Shown here: piece after piece, positions 2,082-33,677 of the stretch | Layout of the letters: every line of letters begins with the position of its first letter | How positions within the stretch are numbered: the first letter of the stretch is position 1 | Sequence record: MT446422.1 | Reading direction: 5' to 3' (one strand) | Source of the DNA: Escherichia virus TH57 | Length of the DNA: 64,000 nt | Translations under genes and position numbers: made by a program | The notes under the pieces: model-generated | Databases searched by the model: none | What the model saw: only the letters and a program-made list of their open reading frames with translations | Told to the model about the DNA's origin: nothing

Positions 2082-5000
2082 TTACATTTACCTGTGTAGG
2101 ATTAACCGGGTCTCTTGGATTACCAATATCATCTTTAAGACGTTGGTCAACTAATGCTCTCCAATTTGAGAATGTAACAGCCGACTGGTCAAACAGTGGA
2201 CTATATTTTCCACGACGTTGTGACGGTAACAACCCATAGAACATGGAGAAATCATTCTCGGCATCATAATCGGCTGGTAATGGGAATGGTTGACCAGCAT
2301 TAGGAGCGATGTTATATATTGCTTCACCTGTGATAGGGTTTTTCTCAATAGTACCATCAACACCAATCACTGCAACTCGGTCATTCCATTCTGACGGAAT
2401 ACCAGAAGACCATCTATAGTTACTTAATTTATTAATGATTGTCTCGGTGTGTTTAAGAGTCAAACCAACGTTAACAAACATTGTCAGCAACGTAATACCG
2501 ATGAATCCAAATCCAACCGGGTGAACGAATCGCAAAACATCATTACGATAACGAGAGGTTGGAAGGTTTGACTTAATTGTCATTACGTAATAAGAGCGGT
2601 TACGATTAATATAATCGATGTTGTTGCTCAACAACTCTTTACCACGAACACCTTGCACAATCATCCCCTTGAATGAGGTTCTTTCTGATTTAATTTCTTG
2701 CCCAACAATAAAACGTCCCAGGAGGTTATGAATAGTAATACGCCATCTTAATTTACCGTCTTTATAATCGCGCTCCATATAAGTCACATTACTGCGACCA
2801 GTTGCAGTATAAATGGTTTGGCCTACAATGTCTTCACTGATATTATCAGATTCAACTACGATATCATACTCGGTTCCGTTCTTGGATTCGATGTCAATTT
2901 CAACATCTTCATTATACAGCAATTTGAACAGGAATTTATAAGACGCTTCTGTGCCTTTTGTTGCCCAAAAATCAGACTGTCGGGCCTGGAAGAATCGAAC
3001 AGCTTCGTCACGTTTTTCCTTGGAGAGGTAAATGTTGCGTTTGTACATTTCACTCCAGAGGTATTCCCATGCATCTTCCTCGCGTGGATATTGGTTACGA
3101 ATAAGATTCAACAGGTTGTTATAGTATGTACCAGAACCATCACTGATGAACTGCAAATAATATTCACAGAATTTTTCAAATTTACTATCCTGCAAAAGAT
3201 AGCTATCCGGAACCATCTTCGTTAATAATGGCTGCAGGTCAGGGTCTTTTTCCTTATTCTCATTTTCTGGAGTCCATGGAATATCATGTTCCTGGTTTTG
3301 CAGTTCGGCCATAAGCATAATTTCTTTTGGCTTCCAGATGATACGCACTTCATCGCGCACGCGATAGTCAAACTCAAAATAGCCAATTAATTCCCCAGTA
3401 TTTTTATGAAGCATAATCCCGGAGGCATATTTTTTAAAGCCATTGAATTCGATGTTAGGTGCAGTAATCGTTACTTGACCTTTGTTCCAATATTCATGCA
3501 CGATACGTTCCGGGGAAGTTCCACTAAATGTATCGATGATATACTGGTAAAGAACATCGTTATAGACGACCATTGCTCGGTCTGAAGTCGTAATCCAGCA
3601 ACGAGTATCGTCACGTCTTGACCAGTTAAAGAACGGCTCTGCATAGTAAGTCATACGCCCAGGTTTGAACTCTTCAAAGCCAGAATCTTCGCCAGCTCTG
3701 AAACTCATCATCAGGTAATGCTTATCATGTATCCATTGTTCATCGTAAACGTATTTGACTGCTTCGTTAACTTCATCAGGATATTTAAGAGGAAGTTCAG
3801 TATCAGGCTCAACCGAATATTTGAAGTTGCTGGAGCTAAAGAATACTTCGATGCCATCAGTTGACATGCTTGCATAACCATGTTCGATTCGGCGGCGTTC
3901 TTCTTCTGTATTACCAAAAACTCTCGTCCATGTATCAGTAACAGGGTCTAATTTATAAACACCTTTATCCAGAGAGTCAACAACGTTTTCAGGTTTAGTT
4001 GGGTCTTGTCTTTCTTCTTTAACTTCACCTGTAATTAATGCAAACGTATGGCCTTGAACTGAATCCATTTTATAGCAAACTGCTTTAGGGTTCGCCGTAA
4101 TTGTACTGTAACCAGTTTCAAATAGTTTTTCACCAAAAGTCGGAGACCCTGGGGTTGTATCAATCGGCGCATCAGAGGTTTTTGCTTTATATACACGACC
4201 ACGAGCCGCAACATAAATGAACTCATCCGAAACCGTAATAGCTTCTGCTATTTGCGAAATATATGCCGGAAGTCTTGCATAGTTACCGAAGATTTCAATA
4301 TCAAATCCAAGGTTAATATCCGAACCGACTTTAGCAAATGTAATATCTTCAGAACTGAATCGAACATCATCTGCAGACCATCTTATATCGCTTGATTGGC
4401 GACCATAGAATATACGGTCATACCCCAAAACGTAAGTTGTGGTATCAGTCTGGTAATATACAGTTCTTGATACAGGGTTACCGACCCGCTCGTTAAAGAG
4501 TCTTATGTAATACCAGTTCTGGCCTTTGTCATTGGAGACTTTAACCATCGGCTGGAATCGTTCGAACAAATAAAGAACTCCACCGAGTTCAGCAAGCATC
4601 GTGCGGTTTTGGTCAACACAAACTGCTTGAATCGGTCCCTGGATTTCGTGATATTGGTCTTCTTGTAAAACATAGTTCGAGATTGAAGACAAATGAGAAT
4701 ATGCAGAGGTCCATGTAAAGTCTTCGGTCATCAATGAGGCCATAATAGCATCATTGTTAAAGTTGATATATCTCTGATTGTTATTGGTGAATTTTTCTTC
4801 AATGAATTTATTAGCCAAACTAAATTCGCGCATATGTTCAAAAGTATACGCGTTTGTTGCAAAGGTTTCAAATTCTTCGGTGTATTCCCAATCAGACCGT
4901 TCGAAGCCCATTGCCGCAACAGACACGCGCATCTGATAACTTGTTAACGGACGAATATATTCCTGCTCGAACCATTCATTGTCTGCGGTATAACCAAGGT

Positions 5001-25357: not shown

Positions 25358-25590
25358 GTATTGCAATTTATATTAAATCAGAGTCGTGTGATTCTTATCT
25401 GTATTCCTATGACACTGGAACATCAGAAGAGAAAATCAAAGATGATTTAGAAACCGACTTGGATATGTTCCGACCTATTTCTGAATACAGAATTCAAATT
25501 TCTGATAGTGAATCCCCTTCATTGGAAAATAGACTTGAATTTTTAATGAGTGATATTTTTAACCAATCCTGGGAACGTGACGATGAGTAA
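25354..25590 (+). CDS. acidic hypothetical protein
   Basis: 78 aa ORF overlapping neighbours. Confidence 0.45.
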   Translation: MSIAIYIKSESCDSYLYSYDTGTSEEKIKDDLETDLDMFRPISEYRIQISDSESPSLENRLEFLMSDIFNQSWERDDE

Positions 25591-26041
25591 GAAAAACAAG
25601 GTGAAAGAATTATCTGCTGGCATTATTTTCATGACTGAAGATAAAGAGTTATTCATGGGTCGTGTGACCGGTTCTCGTAAACCAGGTATGCCTGCACACA
25701 AATGGGACATCCCTAAGGGTCATGTTGAAGCTGATGAATCCCCGATTGAAGCTGCTATCCGTGAAACTGAAGAAGAAACTGGGTTTACCCAATATGACCC
25801 AGCATTCTTAAAGGACCTGGGTGAATTTCGTTATTCAGATAATAAAAACCTTCACCTGTTTTTGTACACGGTTCCGGTCGAGCATGAGCAGTTCAGACAT
25901 AGTAAATGCTCTGCCTATCATACCTTCCCGGATGGTAGTTCAGTCCCCGAGTTTGATGCATTTGCTCTGATTAAACCGAGCCAATGGCAATACGTAATGG
26001 GTAAATCGATGTACAAGGTAATGACTCAAATTTTCGGATAA
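25583..26041 (+). CDS. nudE: Nudix hydrolase NudE
   Basis: Nudix box GHVEADESPIEAAIRETEEETG; directly upstream of endolysin e as in T4; ATG at 25583. Confidence 0.85.
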   Translation: MSKKNKVKELSAGIIFMTEDKELFMGRVTGSRKPGMPAHKWDIPKGHVEADESPIEAAIRETEEETGFTQYDPAFLKDLGEFRYSDNKNLHLFLYTVPVEHEQFRHSKCSAYHTFPDGSSVPEFDAFALIKPSQWQYVMGKSMYKVMTQIFG

Positions 26042-28190: not shown

Positions 28191-28718
28191 ATGAAATTTT
28201 TAACTCCAATTTATCTAACCTTAATGCACGCCTTCGCTGAACGCGCCATTGAACGCTTAGATTCAGACCAATACACCTGGTATGAACCCGCTTCAAGAAT
28301 GCAAGAGTTTGGTACTCTTCGACTTGATGGTGGTCGTCAAACAGGTAAAACAAGTGCCCTTGCACAGTTCGCTGCGGATTGGGTTTCCAAGGGTAATGAT
28401 GTGATTGTTATGTCGAGTTCTTCACATCGCTCCCGAGAAATCTGTGATATAATAAAGCGGGTTTCTAAGGCGCAACCACATCTTAATGTTGAGCGACCTG
28501 GTTTTGTTGTATATGATACTGTTCGTTCATTTTTAGACGAAGATAATTTCCATAAGTACCGTGGATTGCGTTTTACGCGTCTTTTAATCATTATTGAAGA
28601 ACCTATTCGCCTCCCTACAATGGATAAGTTCTATGAAGCTTATCAGGTAATGATGAATAAATTTATGTGTCAAGGTGATAAGCCTTTGCCGTTATTCTTT
28701 GTGATAGGAATGCAATAA
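28191..28718 (+). CDS. small P-loop NTPase-like protein
   Basis: Walker A-like GGRQTGKTS and Walker B-like LLIIIEE. Confidence 0.5.
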   Translation: MKFLTPIYLTLMHAFAERAIERLDSDQYTWYEPASRMQEFGTLRLDGGRQTGKTSALAQFAADWVSKGNDVIVMSSSSHRSREICDIIKRVSKAQPHLNVERPGFVVYDTVRSFLDEDNFHKYRGLRFTRLLIIIEEPIRLPTMDKFYEAYQVMMNKFMCQGDKPLPLFFVIGMQ

Positions 28719-29014
28719 TGACTCATGAAGAGCTTTTTGACCAAATCTATTTTATTCCAAAGGTTAGGTCTGAAGATTTCGTAAAGAATTTTGAAATCTT
28801 TAATAAAGCAAATTTCTTTGAGTACGTGTTTTTGTCTGGACCTTTTATTGGGTCCAGATTTCGTTGCACTGCTCCGAGTATTCGCTTAATGAAGCTGGTT
28901 CCTTACTTTACTCTGGAATTTATTTCTGGACCATGTAAGGGTATTATAACTCGTAGCCTCCTGACATATGACCAGGATGTGCGATTAATTAGTGACTGGA
29001 AAAAATATGTCTAA
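28718..29014 (+). CDS. hypothetical protein
   Basis: 98 aa ORF, ATGA coupling. Confidence 0.45.
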   Translation: MTHEELFDQIYFIPKVRSEDFVKNFEIFNKANFFEYVFLSGPFIGSRFRCTAPSIRLMKLVPYFTLEFISGPCKGIITRSLLTYDQDVRLISDWKKYV

Positions 29015-29221
29015 ATTGACTATTGAAGGTTCTGAAGAAGCTCTGAAGATGTTTGTTGACTGGTTCCACGGTCAAGGCGAACAGGACTTTATGGAATGTT
29101 GGGACGGTGGCCAATGGAACGGTAAAGAAATTGTTTATCCGAGCACATATATCTCTGTTCGCGGCGGATATGATGGCCTTCGTTTGGTAGAATATGATAT
29201 TGCATCTGATGAGGAAGTGAA

Positions 29222-29225
<4 letters not shown>
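29007..29225 (+). CDS. hypothetical protein
   Basis: ORF track 28992; ATG at 29007. Confidence 0.45.
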
Positions 29226-29805
<580 letters not shown>

Positions 29806-29861
29806 TGTACAAGCAGATTGAAATGAGTTATGATTATCCCATCAAACAAAAGGAGATAATC

Positions 29862-30320
29862 ATGACTACTATCGATTCAAGTGTTTACATTCGCCGCAAT
29901 AAACTTCGTCGCATTTTTGAAACGGAGTTCCTCAAAATTAATAATGCTATCAACAAGGCTTGTAAAGAAGCAGGTCTTGAAGCATTCTTCATTAAGTACA
30001 GTCCGCACCTGTTGGACCGTGCAATCCAACGTGAAATTGACGAACAATATGTTTTTGACTTGTTTGGAAAAATCACACCACATGTAAAAGAAATCGTTGA
30101 ATTCTTGGAGATGAAACCACTCCCGGAAGTTGAAGCACAAATTGACCCGAATGTGAACTACCGTCCACTTCGTCTGGAAATCACAGACAAGAACCTGTGG
30201 TTAGGAATGACAGTTAACCCCGCTATTCCTGGGAAGTCTCCAACCATGTGTTGCCGTATGGCGTTTGTTAACTCTAATCGTCTGGAAGGAAAAATTAGCA
30301 CAAAAGTGATTTATATCTAA
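29862..30320 (+). CDS. regB: RegB endoribonuclease
   Basis: ORF track 29805; ATG at 29862; YIRRNKLRR...KYSPHLLDRAIQREIDEQYVFDLF...YRPLRLEITDKNLWLG matches T4 RegB. Confidence 0.85.
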   Translation: MTTIDSSVYIRRNKLRRIFETEFLKINNAINKACKEAGLEAFFIKYSPHLLDRAIQREIDEQYVFDLFGKITPHVKEIVEFLEMKPLPEVEAQIDPNVNYRPLRLEITDKNLWLGMTVNPAIPGKSPTMCCRMAFVNSNRLEGKISTKVIYI

Positions 30321-30330
30321 TGGGGAATTC

Positions 30331-30873
30331 ATGAAAAAAGTAATCGCCACCTTACTATTGACAGTTAGTATGTCTGCCCATAGCGTAGAGCCTACTTTCA
30401 GTAATGAACAAATGGAGAATCTCCAATATGCTTATGCATTTGGAGAACAGTTCCAGAAAAATGGTAAGTACAAAGAAAATCCGCACCAACATAATGGTTT
30501 GGGATATATCATGGCTGGTTTAACCTGGCAGGAAAGTTCTGCTGGCGTTAATACAGGATTAAATAAAGATAAGCATCATGCATATGGTATATTCCAAAAT
30601 TATCTTCCAACCGTGCGCGAGCGCGTAAAACAGGTTGGGTGGACAATGACAGATAAAGAAATAATCAAGATGATAAGCAAGAGAGAGAACAGTGCACGCT
30701 GGGCTTATATTGAGCTTTCATACTGGTTGAATATTCATAAGGGGGATATAAGAAAAACGCTATCATCATATAACGCAGGGTGGAATGTGAAAGCTGGAAA
30801 TACGTATGCTTCACAGGTTCTAGAAAAAGCTAACTACTTAAAATCACGAGGCCTATTAAAAACGGTGGATTAA
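30331..30873 (+). CDS. secreted lytic transglycosylase-like protein (SLT-type motifs)
   Basis: Signal-peptide-like MKKVIATLLLTVSMSAHS; motifs QES...GIFQ...SYNAG resemble SLT ES/GLMQ/AYNAG. Confidence 0.5.
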   Translation: MKKVIATLLLTVSMSAHSVEPTFSNEQMENLQYAYAFGEQFQKNGKYKENPHQHNGLGYIMAGLTWQESSAGVNTGLNKDKHHAYGIFQNYLPTVRERVKQVGWTMTDKEIIKMISKRENSARWAYIELSYWLNIHKGDIRKTLSSYNAGWNVKAGNTYASQVLEKANYLKSRGLLKTVD

Positions 30874-30875
30874 AA

Positions 30876-31235
30876 ATGGTAAGAGTTATCACTTTAGCCA
30901 TAGGGTTAGTATTCAGCATGGGAGGAATAGCTTCAGTACAGAGCGACGACAACAACAGCATCGTAGAATATGCAACGAGGACGGCTAAAGATTATTGCGC
31001 ATCAAGCAATGTGGATTGTGTAATCCGGTTCAGTGCCAAGCTCACAGCAGCCTATAAAGATGGTCAAAATGATGTTGAACATACGCTTTTGAAAAAGAAT
31101 GTATTATCCAACAAATATGAAAAGAAATTATTTGAAATGGATTGCATTCTATCAAGTGCAAAATATAAAGCGGCCTGCACCAGTATGGTTGACAGGTTAG
31201 TGGATTCATATAATAGAGGATTGAACTCTAAATGA
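30876..31235 (+). CDS. secreted small cysteine-containing protein
   Basis: Signal-peptide-like MVRVITLAIGLVFSMGGIASVQS; coupled to the upstream gene. Confidence 0.5.
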   Translation: MVRVITLAIGLVFSMGGIASVQSDDNNSIVEYATRTAKDYCASSNVDCVIRFSAKLTAAYKDGQNDVEHTLLKKNVLSNKYEKKLFEMDCILSSAKYKAACTSMVDRLVDSYNRGLNSK

Positions 31236-31705
31236 TTACCCAGTATATTAAGGGCGATATCGTCGCCCTCTTTCTTCAAGGCAATATTATTGCGCATGGT
31301 TGCAACTGCTTTCACACAATGGGTTCTGGCGTAGCTGGACAGTTGGCGAAGGCTTATCCAAAAGTTTTAGAAATAGATAAAACCACTACTGAATATGGTT
31401 CTCGTAATAAATTAGGCGATATGTCTATCGTTTTTAAACATAATCCAACTGGATTTGGTATGTGCTATAATTTGTATACGCAATACGAACCAGGCCCTAA
31501 TCTTGATTATGGTGCTTTAGTAAATTGTATGATAGAATTAAATCTACAAGCAGAAACCCTTTTGTTTAAACCTGTAATTTATATTCCTCGTATTGGTTGT
31601 GGTATTGCAGGTGGAGATTGGGAAAAGGTTTCTAAATTAATCGACATGTTTACTCCTGACATTGATTTGATAGTGGTGGATTATGAGCCAAGTCCGAATT
31701 CTTAA
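31232..31705 (+). CDS. macro-domain protein, TARG1/OARD1-like (ADP-ribose processing)
   Basis: [22 protein letters not shown] and [16 protein letters not shown] align with recalled TARG1 motifs [22 protein letters not shown] and MPRIGCGLDRLQWENV. Confidence 0.6.
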   Translation: [157 protein letters not shown]

Positions 31706-31889
31706 AACGGCCAAATGTGAAAAATGCGAATGGCCAGTAATCGCAGCTTTATGCAACGATGAAATGAATTGCGAATATGATTACTGGTGGTACTGTTCTA
31801 ATAAAGGATGTTCTAATCATAAGGGTGAAGGTTTTCATTCTGGTTATTGCGAACATCCTAAATTTGTGCGATATGGTGAACCGAAATGA
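31683..31889 (+). CDS. small Cys-rich (zinc-binding-like) protein
   Basis: 68 aa with CxxC pairs (CEKCEW..., CSNKGCSNHKGEGFHSGYCEH). Confidence 0.45.
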   Translation: MSQVRILKTAKCEKCEWPVIAALCNDEMNCEYDYWWYCSNKGCSNHKGEGFHSGYCEHPKFVRYGEPK

Positions 31890-32071
31890 GTTTAAGCATT
31901 AGTCAGAAAAGTAGATTATTTGAGCTTATCCATGAGCTTTTGGATGAGCATACGGAAGCAAACGCCTTTTATGATGAATATGGCCCGATAGATGCCGACC
32001 ATCTGGAAGAATTTGCTAATCGATTTGATGAGAAAGAAAACGAATTAATAGCTTATGTGAATACGCTTTAA
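31886..32071 (+). CDS. hypothetical protein
   Basis: 61 aa acidic ORF. Confidence 0.4.
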   Translation: MSLSISQKSRLFELIHELLDEHTEANAFYDEYGPIDADHLEEFANRFDEKENELIAYVNTL

Positions 32072-32080
32072 GAAGGTGAT

Positions 32081-32653
32081 ATGGCGAGTTTAATTTATCA
32101 TTACGCAGCAATGAATGCAGGCAAAACAGCTTCATTGCTGACTGCAGCTTATTCCTATAAAGAGCGTGGAATGAGTGTGCTTTTGCTAAAGCCTGTTATT
32201 GATAATCGGGACTCGGAATCTGAAATTAAATCACGTATTGGTATTAGTCAGGAAGCAAACCTGGTAACGGCCGACATGAACCTGTTTGAATTCTATAAAT
32301 GGGCCGAGTCTCAAAAGGATATCCATTGTGTCCTGGTCGATGAAGCTCAATTTTTGTTACCAGAGCAAATTGACCAGTTAGCTCAAGTGGTTGATAATTA
32401 CAATATCCCCGTTATGTGTTACGGGCTAAGAACAGATTTTCGGGGTCAGTTATTTCCCGGTTCAGCCAGACTTCTGGCTATTTCGGATAAACTGGTTGAA
32501 TTAAAGGGCGTCTGCCATTGCGGCCGGAAAGCAACCATGACCGCTCGAGTAATCGACGGTGCTGCTGTAAAGGACGGCGAGCAAGTATTGGTCGGTGGGA
32601 ATGAATCGTACGTATCTTTATGCAGGAAACATTGGCTCGAATTGACAAGCTGA
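32081..32653 (+). CDS. tk: thymidine kinase
   Basis: MASLIYHYAAMNAGKTASLL P-loop N-terminus and C-terminal CHCGRKAT zinc ribbon match T4 Tk. Confidence 0.9.
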   Translation: MASLIYHYAAMNAGKTASLLTAAYSYKERGMSVLLLKPVIDNRDSESEIKSRIGISQEANLVTADMNLFEFYKWAESQKDIHCVLVDEAQFLLPEQIDQLAQVVDNYNIPVMCYGLRTDFRGQLFPGSARLLAISDKLVELKGVCHCGRKATMTARVIDGAAVKDGEQVLVGGNESYVSLCRKHWLELTS

Positions 32654-32660
32654 GGTCCTT

Positions 32661-32936
32661 ATGATATATAAGATTTGGACGTATATCTCTATTTTTGTTA
32701 TTGCTGGAATTGCATTTATCCCCACACAAACAGATAGCGAGAGATATGAAAGGGAAATTGAAATAGTAGCAAGCACGTATCATTCTGTTAATAAAGAATG
32801 CCCGAATAAAAATGGAATAAATTTACAAAAAGCACATTATATGCTGACTGTTACTAGTCCGGTGCAAAGAATATGGGTTGATAGCCATTTTTCTGATTTA
32901 TTTGCAATATATTGTTTCAAGTTTAAAAGATTATAA
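32661..32936 (+). CDS. small membrane protein
   Basis: N-terminal TM helix IWTYISIFVIAGIAFI. Confidence 0.45.
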   Translation: MIYKIWTYISIFVIAGIAFIPTQTDSERYEREIEIVASTYHSVNKECPNKNGINLQKAHYMLTVTSPVQRIWVDSHFSDLFAIYCFKFKRL

Positions 32937-33010
32937 ATACAGTTACTAACTAGTATTCCGCTATGTTAAGGCTGCAAAGCGTAATCATGACCAACAATAA
33001 GGAGTCCTTT

Positions 33011-33304
33011 ATGGACCTTATTCGAGGACTTTCTCTAAGTCTATTACTAATGGGCTGTTTAGGCCCAAATCTGTCCTCTGCTACAGATGGTAAATTTACA
33101 CAGTATGCAGATAGTGCGATGCAAATCTATTCGCAATTCAAAGAACCTAGCGTCGAGCAGTCCGAACAATTTTGGGCTTTTATTAAAACCGAATGGAACA
33201 ATAAGAGTCAATGTGTAAATGAAATCACATGTCAAATTGATGGCCGTGCTGCTGCAGTCGAATACGCTAAATTAATGAAGGTAAAATTGGAAGATGAAAT
33301 TTGA
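33011..33304 (+). CDS. rI: RI antiholin (lysis inhibition)
   Basis: ORF track 32963; ATG at 33011 after AAGGAG; signal-anchor N-terminus; SVEQSEQFWAFIKTEW...C...C...YAKLMKVKLEDE matches T4 RI C-terminal domain. Confidence 0.65.
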   Translation: MDLIRGLSLSLLLMGCLGPNLSSATDGKFTQYADSAMQIYSQFKEPSVEQSEQFWAFIKTEWNNKSQCVNEITCQIDGRAAAVEYAKLMKVKLEDEI

Positions 33305-33677
33305 TGATTTCGTAACGGGTCGTGGGTCTGAGGTGGATTCATATATTGGGTGGTTGTTAGTCTCTTTGGCTTATTTTAAATCCGCCCATCTTGAAACCAA
33401 AAGTTACGCCCGCCATAAAGCTTATGATTTCTACTTCACAGAAATCCAAGGTCCACTCGACCAGTTCAGTGAGCAATGGTTAGGTTACAGCGGGAAACAA
33501 TACAAAGCTGCATTACCGTCCGCCTCGGACTTGCCGAAAGATACAATTTTGTTTTTAGATGAAATGATTAAAAGCTCGGAAAGAGTCTATAAAGTTGTAC
33601 CCAAGGCTATTCAATCGACTCTGGACGATATCGTTGGAGTTTTCTTTCAGACTAAGTATCTGTTAACATTAGAGTAA
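33294..33677 (+). CDS. hypothetical protein
   Basis: 127 aa ORF followed by a terminator. Confidence 0.5.
   Translation: MKFDDFVTGRGSEVDSYIGWLLVSLAYFKSAHLETKSYARHKAYDFYFTEIQGPLDQFSEQWLGYSGKQYKAALPSASDLPKDTILFLDEMIKSSERVYKVVPKAIQSTLDDIVGVFFQTKYLLTLE

Follow-up and report, generated by a model that had tools for sequence, protein, structure and literature searches.

The tk.4 ortholog of Escherichia virus TH57 encodes a standalone ALC1-like macrodomain and is a candidate eraser of DarT2-type ADP-ribosylation

Escherichia virus TH57 carries an ortholog of the phage T4 gene tk.4, and its product is a standalone macrodomain that probably removes from thymidine in phage DNA the ADP-ribose attached by DarT2, acting as a hydrolase of the Gln type. 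The gene (31232..31705, + strand) was analyzed within a stretch of 64,000 nucleotides of the phage DNA (sequence record MT446422.1), referred to here as the window. Its open reading frame (ORF), as read from the sequence, starts with ATG and encodes 157 amino acids, and it was assigned to the T4 Tk.4/"AdfM" type using Pfam, PHROG 335, identity to T4, and an AlphaFold2 model compared with Foldseek. An earlier preliminary description had delimited the same ORF and proposed that it encodes a TARG1/OARD1-like macrodomain capable of reversing the marks left by DarTG defense systems. The ORF was as claimed.

The window protein is a macrodomain, with a match far beyond chance. Pfam Macro (PF01661) was matched with 35.1 bits against a cut-off of 22 (expectation value E=1.4e-8) over profile positions 2-117 of 118, as the preliminary description had anticipated, and PHROG 335 matched the tk.4 protein with E=6e-71. 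When the single sequence was used as the query, the PDB matches were BT1257 (4.5e-11), Poa1p (8e-10), SCO6735 (3.5e-7), Mycobacterium tuberculosis DarG (1.8e-5), and human TARG1 (2e-3). With a profile of the 64-sequence family, the matches were BT1257 (3e-19), TARG1 (4e-17), SCO6735 (2e-15), Poa1p (1e-14), and DarG (8e-12).

The AlphaFold2 model, built from an alignment of 63 homologs, featured six strands and five helices and had a predicted local distance difference test (pLDDT) value of 95.1 and a predicted template modeling score (pTM) of 0.90. In this model, the macro fold, of three alpha/beta/alpha layers around a central mixed sheet, contains a predicted ADP-ribose cleft between two glycine-rich loops, with the conserved Asn in loop 1. 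Comparison with the PDB using Foldseek gave TARG1 as the best match (E=3e-10, template modeling scores 0.72/0.80). Ranks 1-26 were occupied by TARG1, Poa1p, BT1257, DarG, SCO6735, ALC1, TTHA0132, and designed hydrolases; coronavirus Mac1, YmdB, and MacroD ranked below the ALC1-like members, and the top 50 among the PDB matches listed were macrodomains or designed proteins derived from them. The sequence ranking agreed with the structural one in placing ALC1-like relatives nearest, and not MacroD, PARG, or viral Mac1. The window protein therefore belongs to the ALC1-like (TARG1/DarG/SCO6735/Poa1p) macrodomain class.

The putative active-site residues were located using a family alignment of 64 homologs from phages and metagenomes, with identities as low as 39%, and a MAFFT comparison including T4 Tk.4, BT1257, SCO6735, TARG1, both DarG structures, and PhiKZ gp104. 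Loop 1 contains the motif H22-G23-C24-N25-C26 (31295..31309, + strand), in which H22, G23, N25, and C26 were invariant in the family; N25 corresponds to the conserved macrodomain Asn of the ADP-ribose site, and its counterparts in the alignment were SCO6735 N27 and the Asn found in DarG and PhiKZ gp104. In the GxG phosphate-binding loop G31-S32-G33 (31322..31330, + strand), both glycines were invariant across the phage proteins, BT1257, SCO6735, TARG1, DarG, and PhiKZ AdfM. The HMMER and MAFFT alignments both placed the last residue of the N80-L-Y-T-Q84 motif (31469..31483, + strand; Q84 codon 31481-31483) opposite TARG1 K84, K80 of Taq DarG, the Lys of the PhiKZ gp104 FPTK motif, SCO6735 Q85, and the Gln of BT1257. 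The second glycine-rich loop, for diphosphate or substrate binding (P119-W130; 31586..31621, + strand), was delimited by alignment to TARG1 PRIGCGLDRLQW. In this loop, P119, G122, G124, and W130 were invariant among the 64 sequences, and A126, G127, and G128 were conserved at 90% or more; A126 stands in the place of TARG1 D125 in both alignments. G33, A35, D49, N80, Y82, Q84, and G88 were also invariant in the 64 homologs.

These alignments refine the comparison with TARG1 (PDB 4j5r/4j5s). The two motifs quoted in the preliminary description (residues 23-36 and 118-133) were present and aligned with TARG1 in HMMER and MAFFT as it had noted, and the glycine-rich loops were intact in the proper alignment. 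The catalytic Lys/Asp pair, whose conservation it had proposed to check, was not retained: K84 is replaced by the invariant Gln84 and D125 by Ala126. Consequently, the TARG1/OARD1-like label stands for the ALC1/TARG1-like class and for the best structural match, with similar size and loop lengths, but not for a place in the TARG1 family mechanistically, and identity to TARG1 is 23-25%. The window protein is predicted to be a Gln-type ALC1-like macrodomain, the assignment of Q84 to the active site being based on sequence- and profile-level alignment with proteins of solved structure. Having Gln instead of Lys at the catalytic position would place the T4-type AdfM family mechanistically with SCO6735, and not with DarG, TARG1, or PhiKZ AdfM.

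The chemistry is thus probably of the SCO6735 type rather than of the TARG1/DarG type. SCO6735 cleaves thymidine-linked ADP-ribose (T-ADPr) from DNA and rescues cells from DarT, and its Q85A/E variants no longer hydrolyze T-ADPr on DNA; a water-mediated mechanism with the Gln positioning the distal ribose was proposed, and T-ADPr reversal was argued to be a unifying activity of the ALC1-like class (PMC9411070). SCO6735 and BT1257 (PDB 5e3b, 2fg1) resemble the window protein in being standalone, with about 150 amino acids and no adjacent toxin, in the Gln of an N-x-x-x-Q motif (Q85 and Q84, respectively, in SCO6735 and the window protein), and in the common PRIGCG(L/I)AGG.W loop; BT1257 was the best sequence match of the window protein in the PDB. 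However, identity to the two proteins is 26-30%, and their "mobile loop" is five residues longer than that of TARG1 and DarG (PMC9411070), an extension that the window protein lacks. In HMMER, a 6-residue gap after G88 was needed to align it with BT1257, and in the MAFFT alignment a 5-residue insert was found only in BT1257 and SCO6735. The DNA-binding residue K34 of SCO6735 corresponds to S32, and V25 to G23. Both proteins are basic (isoelectric point, pI, of 8.4-9.5), whereas the window protein is acidic (pI 5.0). The low pI is no obstacle to a DNA substrate, because PhiKZ gp104 (pI 5.05) demonstrably de-ADP-ribosylates single-stranded DNA. From its sequence features, the window protein is not a full member of the SCO6735 subclass.

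The window gene is the Gaprivervirus (SP18-like) positional ortholog of T4 tk.4. The preliminary description had stated that it was not a T4 gene; T4, however, carries tk.4 (NP_049723) at this very position, flanked by vs and tk.3, and the novelty implied by that statement is lost. The T4 product has 155 amino acids and is annotated as "phosphatase; contains A1pp phosphatase motif". A table of 2006 had already listed tk.4 orthologs with an A1pp/macro match (PMC1524935). The two proteins are 57% identical over 153 residues without gaps (E=1e-69), but only 46% identical over residues 48-153. They have all family-invariant residues in common, including HGCNC, NLYTQ, and PRIG.G. They differ in loop 2, where T4 Tk.4 has the deviant GAGIGKGNW and the window protein the family consensus GCGIAGGDW. 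The gene order regB–vs.1–vs–tk.4–tk.3–tk.2–tk is common to the window and T4. Over the 2.4 kb around tk.4, DNA identity was 96-97% to Escherichia phage 212, vB_EcoM_RZ, Yersinia phage vB_YenM_P8, and Shigella phage SP18, the type of Gaprivervirus (Tevenvirinae); in SP18 (96.6%), the record labels the gene tk.4 and "phosphatase". The idea that tk.4 is an unusually diverged hot spot in the window phage was rejected, as its 57% identity to T4 is typical beside that of its neighbors (45-71%).

Homologs of tk.4 were found in 2,756 of 50,697 phage records, and relatives with 33-44% identity to the phage protein in 504 or more bacterial loci spread over many phyla. All of the 80 bacterial relatives examined were standalone proteins of about 150 amino acids; an N-x-x-(T/S)-Q expression matched 77 of them, and NxYTQ was present in 76. 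The hosts of NxYTQ macrodomains included Rhodobacteraceae (Ruegeria), Desulfobacterales, Verrucomicrobia, Planctomycetota, and Hyphomicrobiaceae, among others. Some phage records hold shortened forms: the protein has 130 amino acids in the Shigella phages SHFML-11 and SHFML-26, and coverage is 81% in vB_Eco_TB37. In Edwardsiella phage PEi20 (601-1056), tk.4 is annotated as a coding sequence of 138 nt and is probably under-annotated, since a single tblastn alignment spanned 97% of the window protein, with 60% identity.

Genetic support for a role against DarT comes from T4. A screen of a T4 transposon library (HIDEN-SEQ) on E. coli expressing DarTG2 gave one significant hit, tk.4, whose clean deletion sensitized T4 to DarTG2 (10.1101/2025.11.20.689424, a bioRxiv preprint of November 2025). 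Its authors introduced the name adfM (anti-DarT factor Macrodomain) and proposed that ADP-ribose is removed enzymatically from DNA (10.1101/2025.11.20.689424). Because deletion of T4 tk.4 sensitizes the phage to DarTG2, the reversal of DarT modification suggested in the preliminary description has genetic support, for the T4 ortholog; the idea was largely right and had already been published for that ortholog (10.1101/2025.11.20.689424). We infer that the 57%-identical window allele would act like T4 tk.4, catalytically through Q84.

The most likely course of the reaction is as follows. When the DarTG2 system of the host fires, DarT2 places ADP-ribose on thymidine in TNTC motifs of the single-stranded phage DNA, and replication is blocked. 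The standalone 17-kDa macrodomain would function as an antitoxin-like enzyme against DarT2, with the ADP-ribose bound between the two glycine-rich loops. Q84 and N25 would position the distal ribose, with the Gln also positioning the transition state and a bound water acting in proton transfer or as the donor. Hydrolysis of the N-glycosidic bond between ribose and thymine would release free ADP-ribose and restore the DNA.

Several observations weigh against this assignment. For Tk.4-type proteins the support consists of T4 genetics in a preprint, and identity between the window allele and the T4 allele used there is only 57%, falling to 46% over residues 48-153; AdfA and AdfB, the other anti-DarT factors, are known to act in an allele-specific manner (PMC11481870). 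The catalytic Lys of DarG and TARG1 is absent from the window protein, and the mechanism of SCO6735 may not transfer to it either, since it lacks both the 5-residue extension of the mobile loop and an equivalent of SCO6735 Lys34. Its scores against DarG models were low, with 31.7 bits against a cut-off of 250 for the NCBIfam DarG equivalog and 32.4 bits for the PADLOC DarG model, which gave 36 for T4 Tk.4 and 132.9 for PhiKZ gp104. Finally, no DarT2 homolog was detected within 6 kb in any of the 80 bacterial loci (phmmer, one Pseudomonas aeruginosa DarT2 query, E<=0.01; very divergent DarTs could escape this search), and the ancestral role of the family may therefore be something else.

Membership of the window protein in DarG was rejected, given the 31.7 bits against 250, the Gln in place of Lys, and the absence of the DarG C-terminal DarT-binding domain from a protein that consists of the macrodomain only. 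DarG (PDB 5m31, 5m3i) and PhiKZ gp104 have in common with it the macrodomain class, a proposed role in DarT2 reversal, and the loop-1 Asn (N25; N23 in PhiKZ), but they carry an FPTK(K/D)xWRxPS motif with the catalytic Lys, where the window protein has NLYTQ. PhiKZ gp104 has also been named AdfM (2026, Cell Reports) and was found biochemically to take the ADP-ribose added by DarT2 off single-stranded DNA, with reduced activity of its N23A variant (PMC13309987). Its motif, FPTKDNWRNPS, is of the DarG/Lys type, and the NLYTQ of T4 Tk.4 is of the Gln type; pairwise BLASTP between the window protein and gp104 aligned only two short segments (E about 1e-3). The differences in motif and in DarG score indicate that the two proteins called AdfM belong to different lineages. 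ORF clustering around the 80 bacterial loci revealed no conserved neighbor and no KptA, 2H, or sirtuin gene; the neighbors that clustered were housekeeping genes specific to particular lineages (IleRS, RpoC, EF-G, ribosomal proteins), none of them in more than seven loci. Taken with the low DarG scores, the missing C-terminal domain, and the lack of a nearby DarT2, this makes the family unlike a recently orphaned DarG; it resembles a "guardian" macrodomain that stands on its own, of the kind proposed for SCO6735. AdfB of ICP1 was rejected as a comparator, as it mimics the C-terminal domain, not the macrodomain, of DarG (PMC11481870).

Three other functions were weighed. The one that survives best, although we regard it as unlikely, is that the protein erases other ADP-ribosylation, with DarT2 reversal as one activity or a side activity; the targets would be Glu/Asp-linked ADP-ribose on protein, phosphate- or base-linked ADP-ribose on RNA or DNA (from CmdT-like or Tpt1-like toxins), or the Alt/ModA/ModB marks of the phage, which it would tune. 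Both TARG1 and SCO6735 also remove Glu/Asp-linked ADP-ribose from protein, and the ability of TARG1 to reverse thymidine ADP-ribosylation by DarT (PMC12879935) is accompanied by activity on 5'-phosphate-linked ADP-ribose of nucleic acids (PMC11833690). T-even phages also meet other ADP-ribosylating defenses, such as CmdTAC (PMC11618068), and two divergent tk.4 alleles swapped between phages would fit differing specificities. However, the T4 screens report tk.4 as a hit for DarTG2 only, and SCO6735, the closest characterized Gln-type protein, was reported to be inactive on 2'-OH RNA ADP-ribose and guanosine ADP-ribose. As for the Alt/Mod enzymes, macrodomains are not known to cleave the arginine linkage that they form, which also counts against this function.

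The second alternative, which we consider improbable, is a metabolite-processing macrodomain: a Poa1p-like ADP-ribose-1''-phosphate phosphatase, an O-acetyl-ADP-ribose deacetylase, or a degrader of ADP-ribose-derived signals or toxic metabolites from NAD+-based host defenses. Yeast Poa1p (PDB 6lfq-6lfu), whose known substrate is a soluble metabolite (ADP-ribose-1''-phosphate), was among the best matches in both sequence and structure, and loop 1 of the window protein (HGCNC..T.G.G) resembled that of Poa1p most, through the motif H-x-C-N-C-x-x-(S/T)-x-G-x-G (HSCNCNGSWGGGIA). H22 and T29 aligned with Poa1p H23 and S30, which are the positions altered in the mutant structures PDB 6lfs and 6lft (numbering inferred from the PDB titles). 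Poa1p differs in its length of 177-180 amino acids, with insertions, and similarity is poor in the central region, where the phmmer alignment is interrupted (residues 78 to 116). This function would also agree with the "phosphatase" annotation in T4, SP18, and PHROG 335, with the argument of Iyer, Burroughs and Aravind that soluble ADP-ribose derivatives are the main targets of standalone macro domains in phages (PMC9503650), and with the missing DarT linkage of the bacterial relatives. Nevertheless, the "phosphatase" label stems from the SMART domain name A1pp rather than from an assay (PMC1524935), recurrent KptA/Tpt1 or 2H partners are absent beside the bacterial relatives, and the sole known phenotype of the T4 ortholog is sensitivity to DarTG2.

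The weakest alternative, which we think very unlikely, is a non-catalytic or mainly stoichiometric inhibitor that binds DarT2 or its product and needs no hydrolysis: the canonical catalytic Lys is absent, the dead variants SCO6735 Q85A, DarG K80A, and TARG1 K84A still inhibit DarT in vitro ("interaction-inhibition"), SCO6735 most strongly (PMC9411070), and phage AdfB counters DarT through direct interaction (PMC11481870), but the window protein lacks the DarG C-terminal DarT-binding domain, the bacterial relatives have no detectable DarT2 nearby, and the invariance of H22, N25, G31, G33, N80, Q84, G122, and G124 in homologs down to 39% identity argues for conserved chemistry at the ligand-binding and active-site positions. 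A Gln-type hydrolase acting on DarT2-modified thymidine is accordingly the function that we favor.

Among T-even phages, tk.4 behaves as an exchangeable allele cassette. Tequatrovirus RB3 (3501-3980) was 98-100% identical to T4 in vs.1, in vs, and over the initial 60-100 nt of tk.4, and the rest of tk.4 (window 31290-31680) was of the window type, with 82-95% identity to the window and 46-64% to T4; tk.3 was T4-like again. Window-type Tk.4 (at least 90% identity) occurred in 316 phage records, and the whole 2.4-kb region was matched in only 42, counts that are consistent with exchange of tk.4 alleles between phages. The crossover in RB3 falls at a GC-rich hairpin of 8 bp that is followed by a T-rich tract, a terminator-like element detected by the terminator-like scan in codons 7-13 of tk.4 (31251..31269, tail to ~31279, + strand). 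The hairpin reads AGGGCGAT-ATC-GTCGCCCT and folds at about -12.6 kcal/mol. The same hairpin was found at the nucleotide level in T4, SP18, RB3, and Krischvirus Ec_Makalu_002, and the record of the last annotates it as "terminator" and has a GTC-to-ATC change by which a T·G pair becomes T-A; the hairpin was absent from the tk.4 orthologs of Kanagawa-, Jiaoda-, and Lazarusvirus. Since conservation extends to the encoded amino acids, selection for the hairpin structure is not proven.

More tentatively, and with the odds against it, Tk.4-type proteins may form a third, independent lineage of T-ADPr DNA hydrolases (Gln-type, with a short loop, acidic, and not derived from DarG) whose two allele cassettes, swapped at the 5' hairpin, differ in specificity, for example, toward DarT2 variants or other nucleic-acid ADP-ribosylating toxins. 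An eraser of the DarTG2 mark would tell which phages infect E. coli, Shigella, and Yersinia strains that carry DarTG2, and it bears on the choice of therapy phages, a point of host range previously made for T4 tk.4 (AdfM). What is added here, namely the Gln-type active site, the two unrelated lineages named AdfM, the spread of the family, and the allele swapping, amounts to testable refinements and not to a new kind of system.

The gene sits in the co-directional regB–vs–tk array. Upstream lies the ortholog of vs, the valyl-tRNA synthetase modifier (30876..31235, + strand; 45% amino acid identity to T4 Vs, and the SP18 annotation), whose stop codon overlaps the start of tk.4 in the ATGA at 31232-31235, which suggests translational coupling. 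A GAGGA Shine-Dalgarno sequence (31216..31220, + strand) was read 11 nt 5' of the ATG. No convincing separate promoter was found for tk.4: a scan of 28500-33500 yielded 12 sigma-70-like sites, fewer than the 15.8 expected from shuffles, and is uninformative on expression. Rfam gave no match in 29500-33500 at E<=1.

Downstream, the tk.3 ortholog, with a phage zinc-binding domain (31683..31889, + strand; Pfam PF23895, E=5e-29, and the SP18 annotation), overlaps the end of tk.4 by 23 nt. The thymidine kinase gene tk (32081..32653, + strand; 71% amino acid identity to T4 Tk), used as the synteny anchor, begins 376 nt downstream of tk.4, in agreement with the tk-proximal placement given in the preliminary description. 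The interval between tk.4 and tk varies in accessory genes. In the window (31886-32653), tk.1 is absent and tk comes directly after tk.2, and the one or two extra small ORFs located between tk.3 and tk.2 in SP18 (4593-4799) and RB3 are missing. No second macrodomain or DarG-type gene was detectable in the window by the macro ORF search, in which DarT itself was not searched for. About 5 kb upstream of tk.4, an ORF for a NUDIX hydrolase (25550-26041, + strand; Pfam E=1e-15) adjoins the lysozyme gene, the position of nudE (e.1) in T4. T4 NudE hydrolyzes ADP-ribose, the expected product of the macrodomain.

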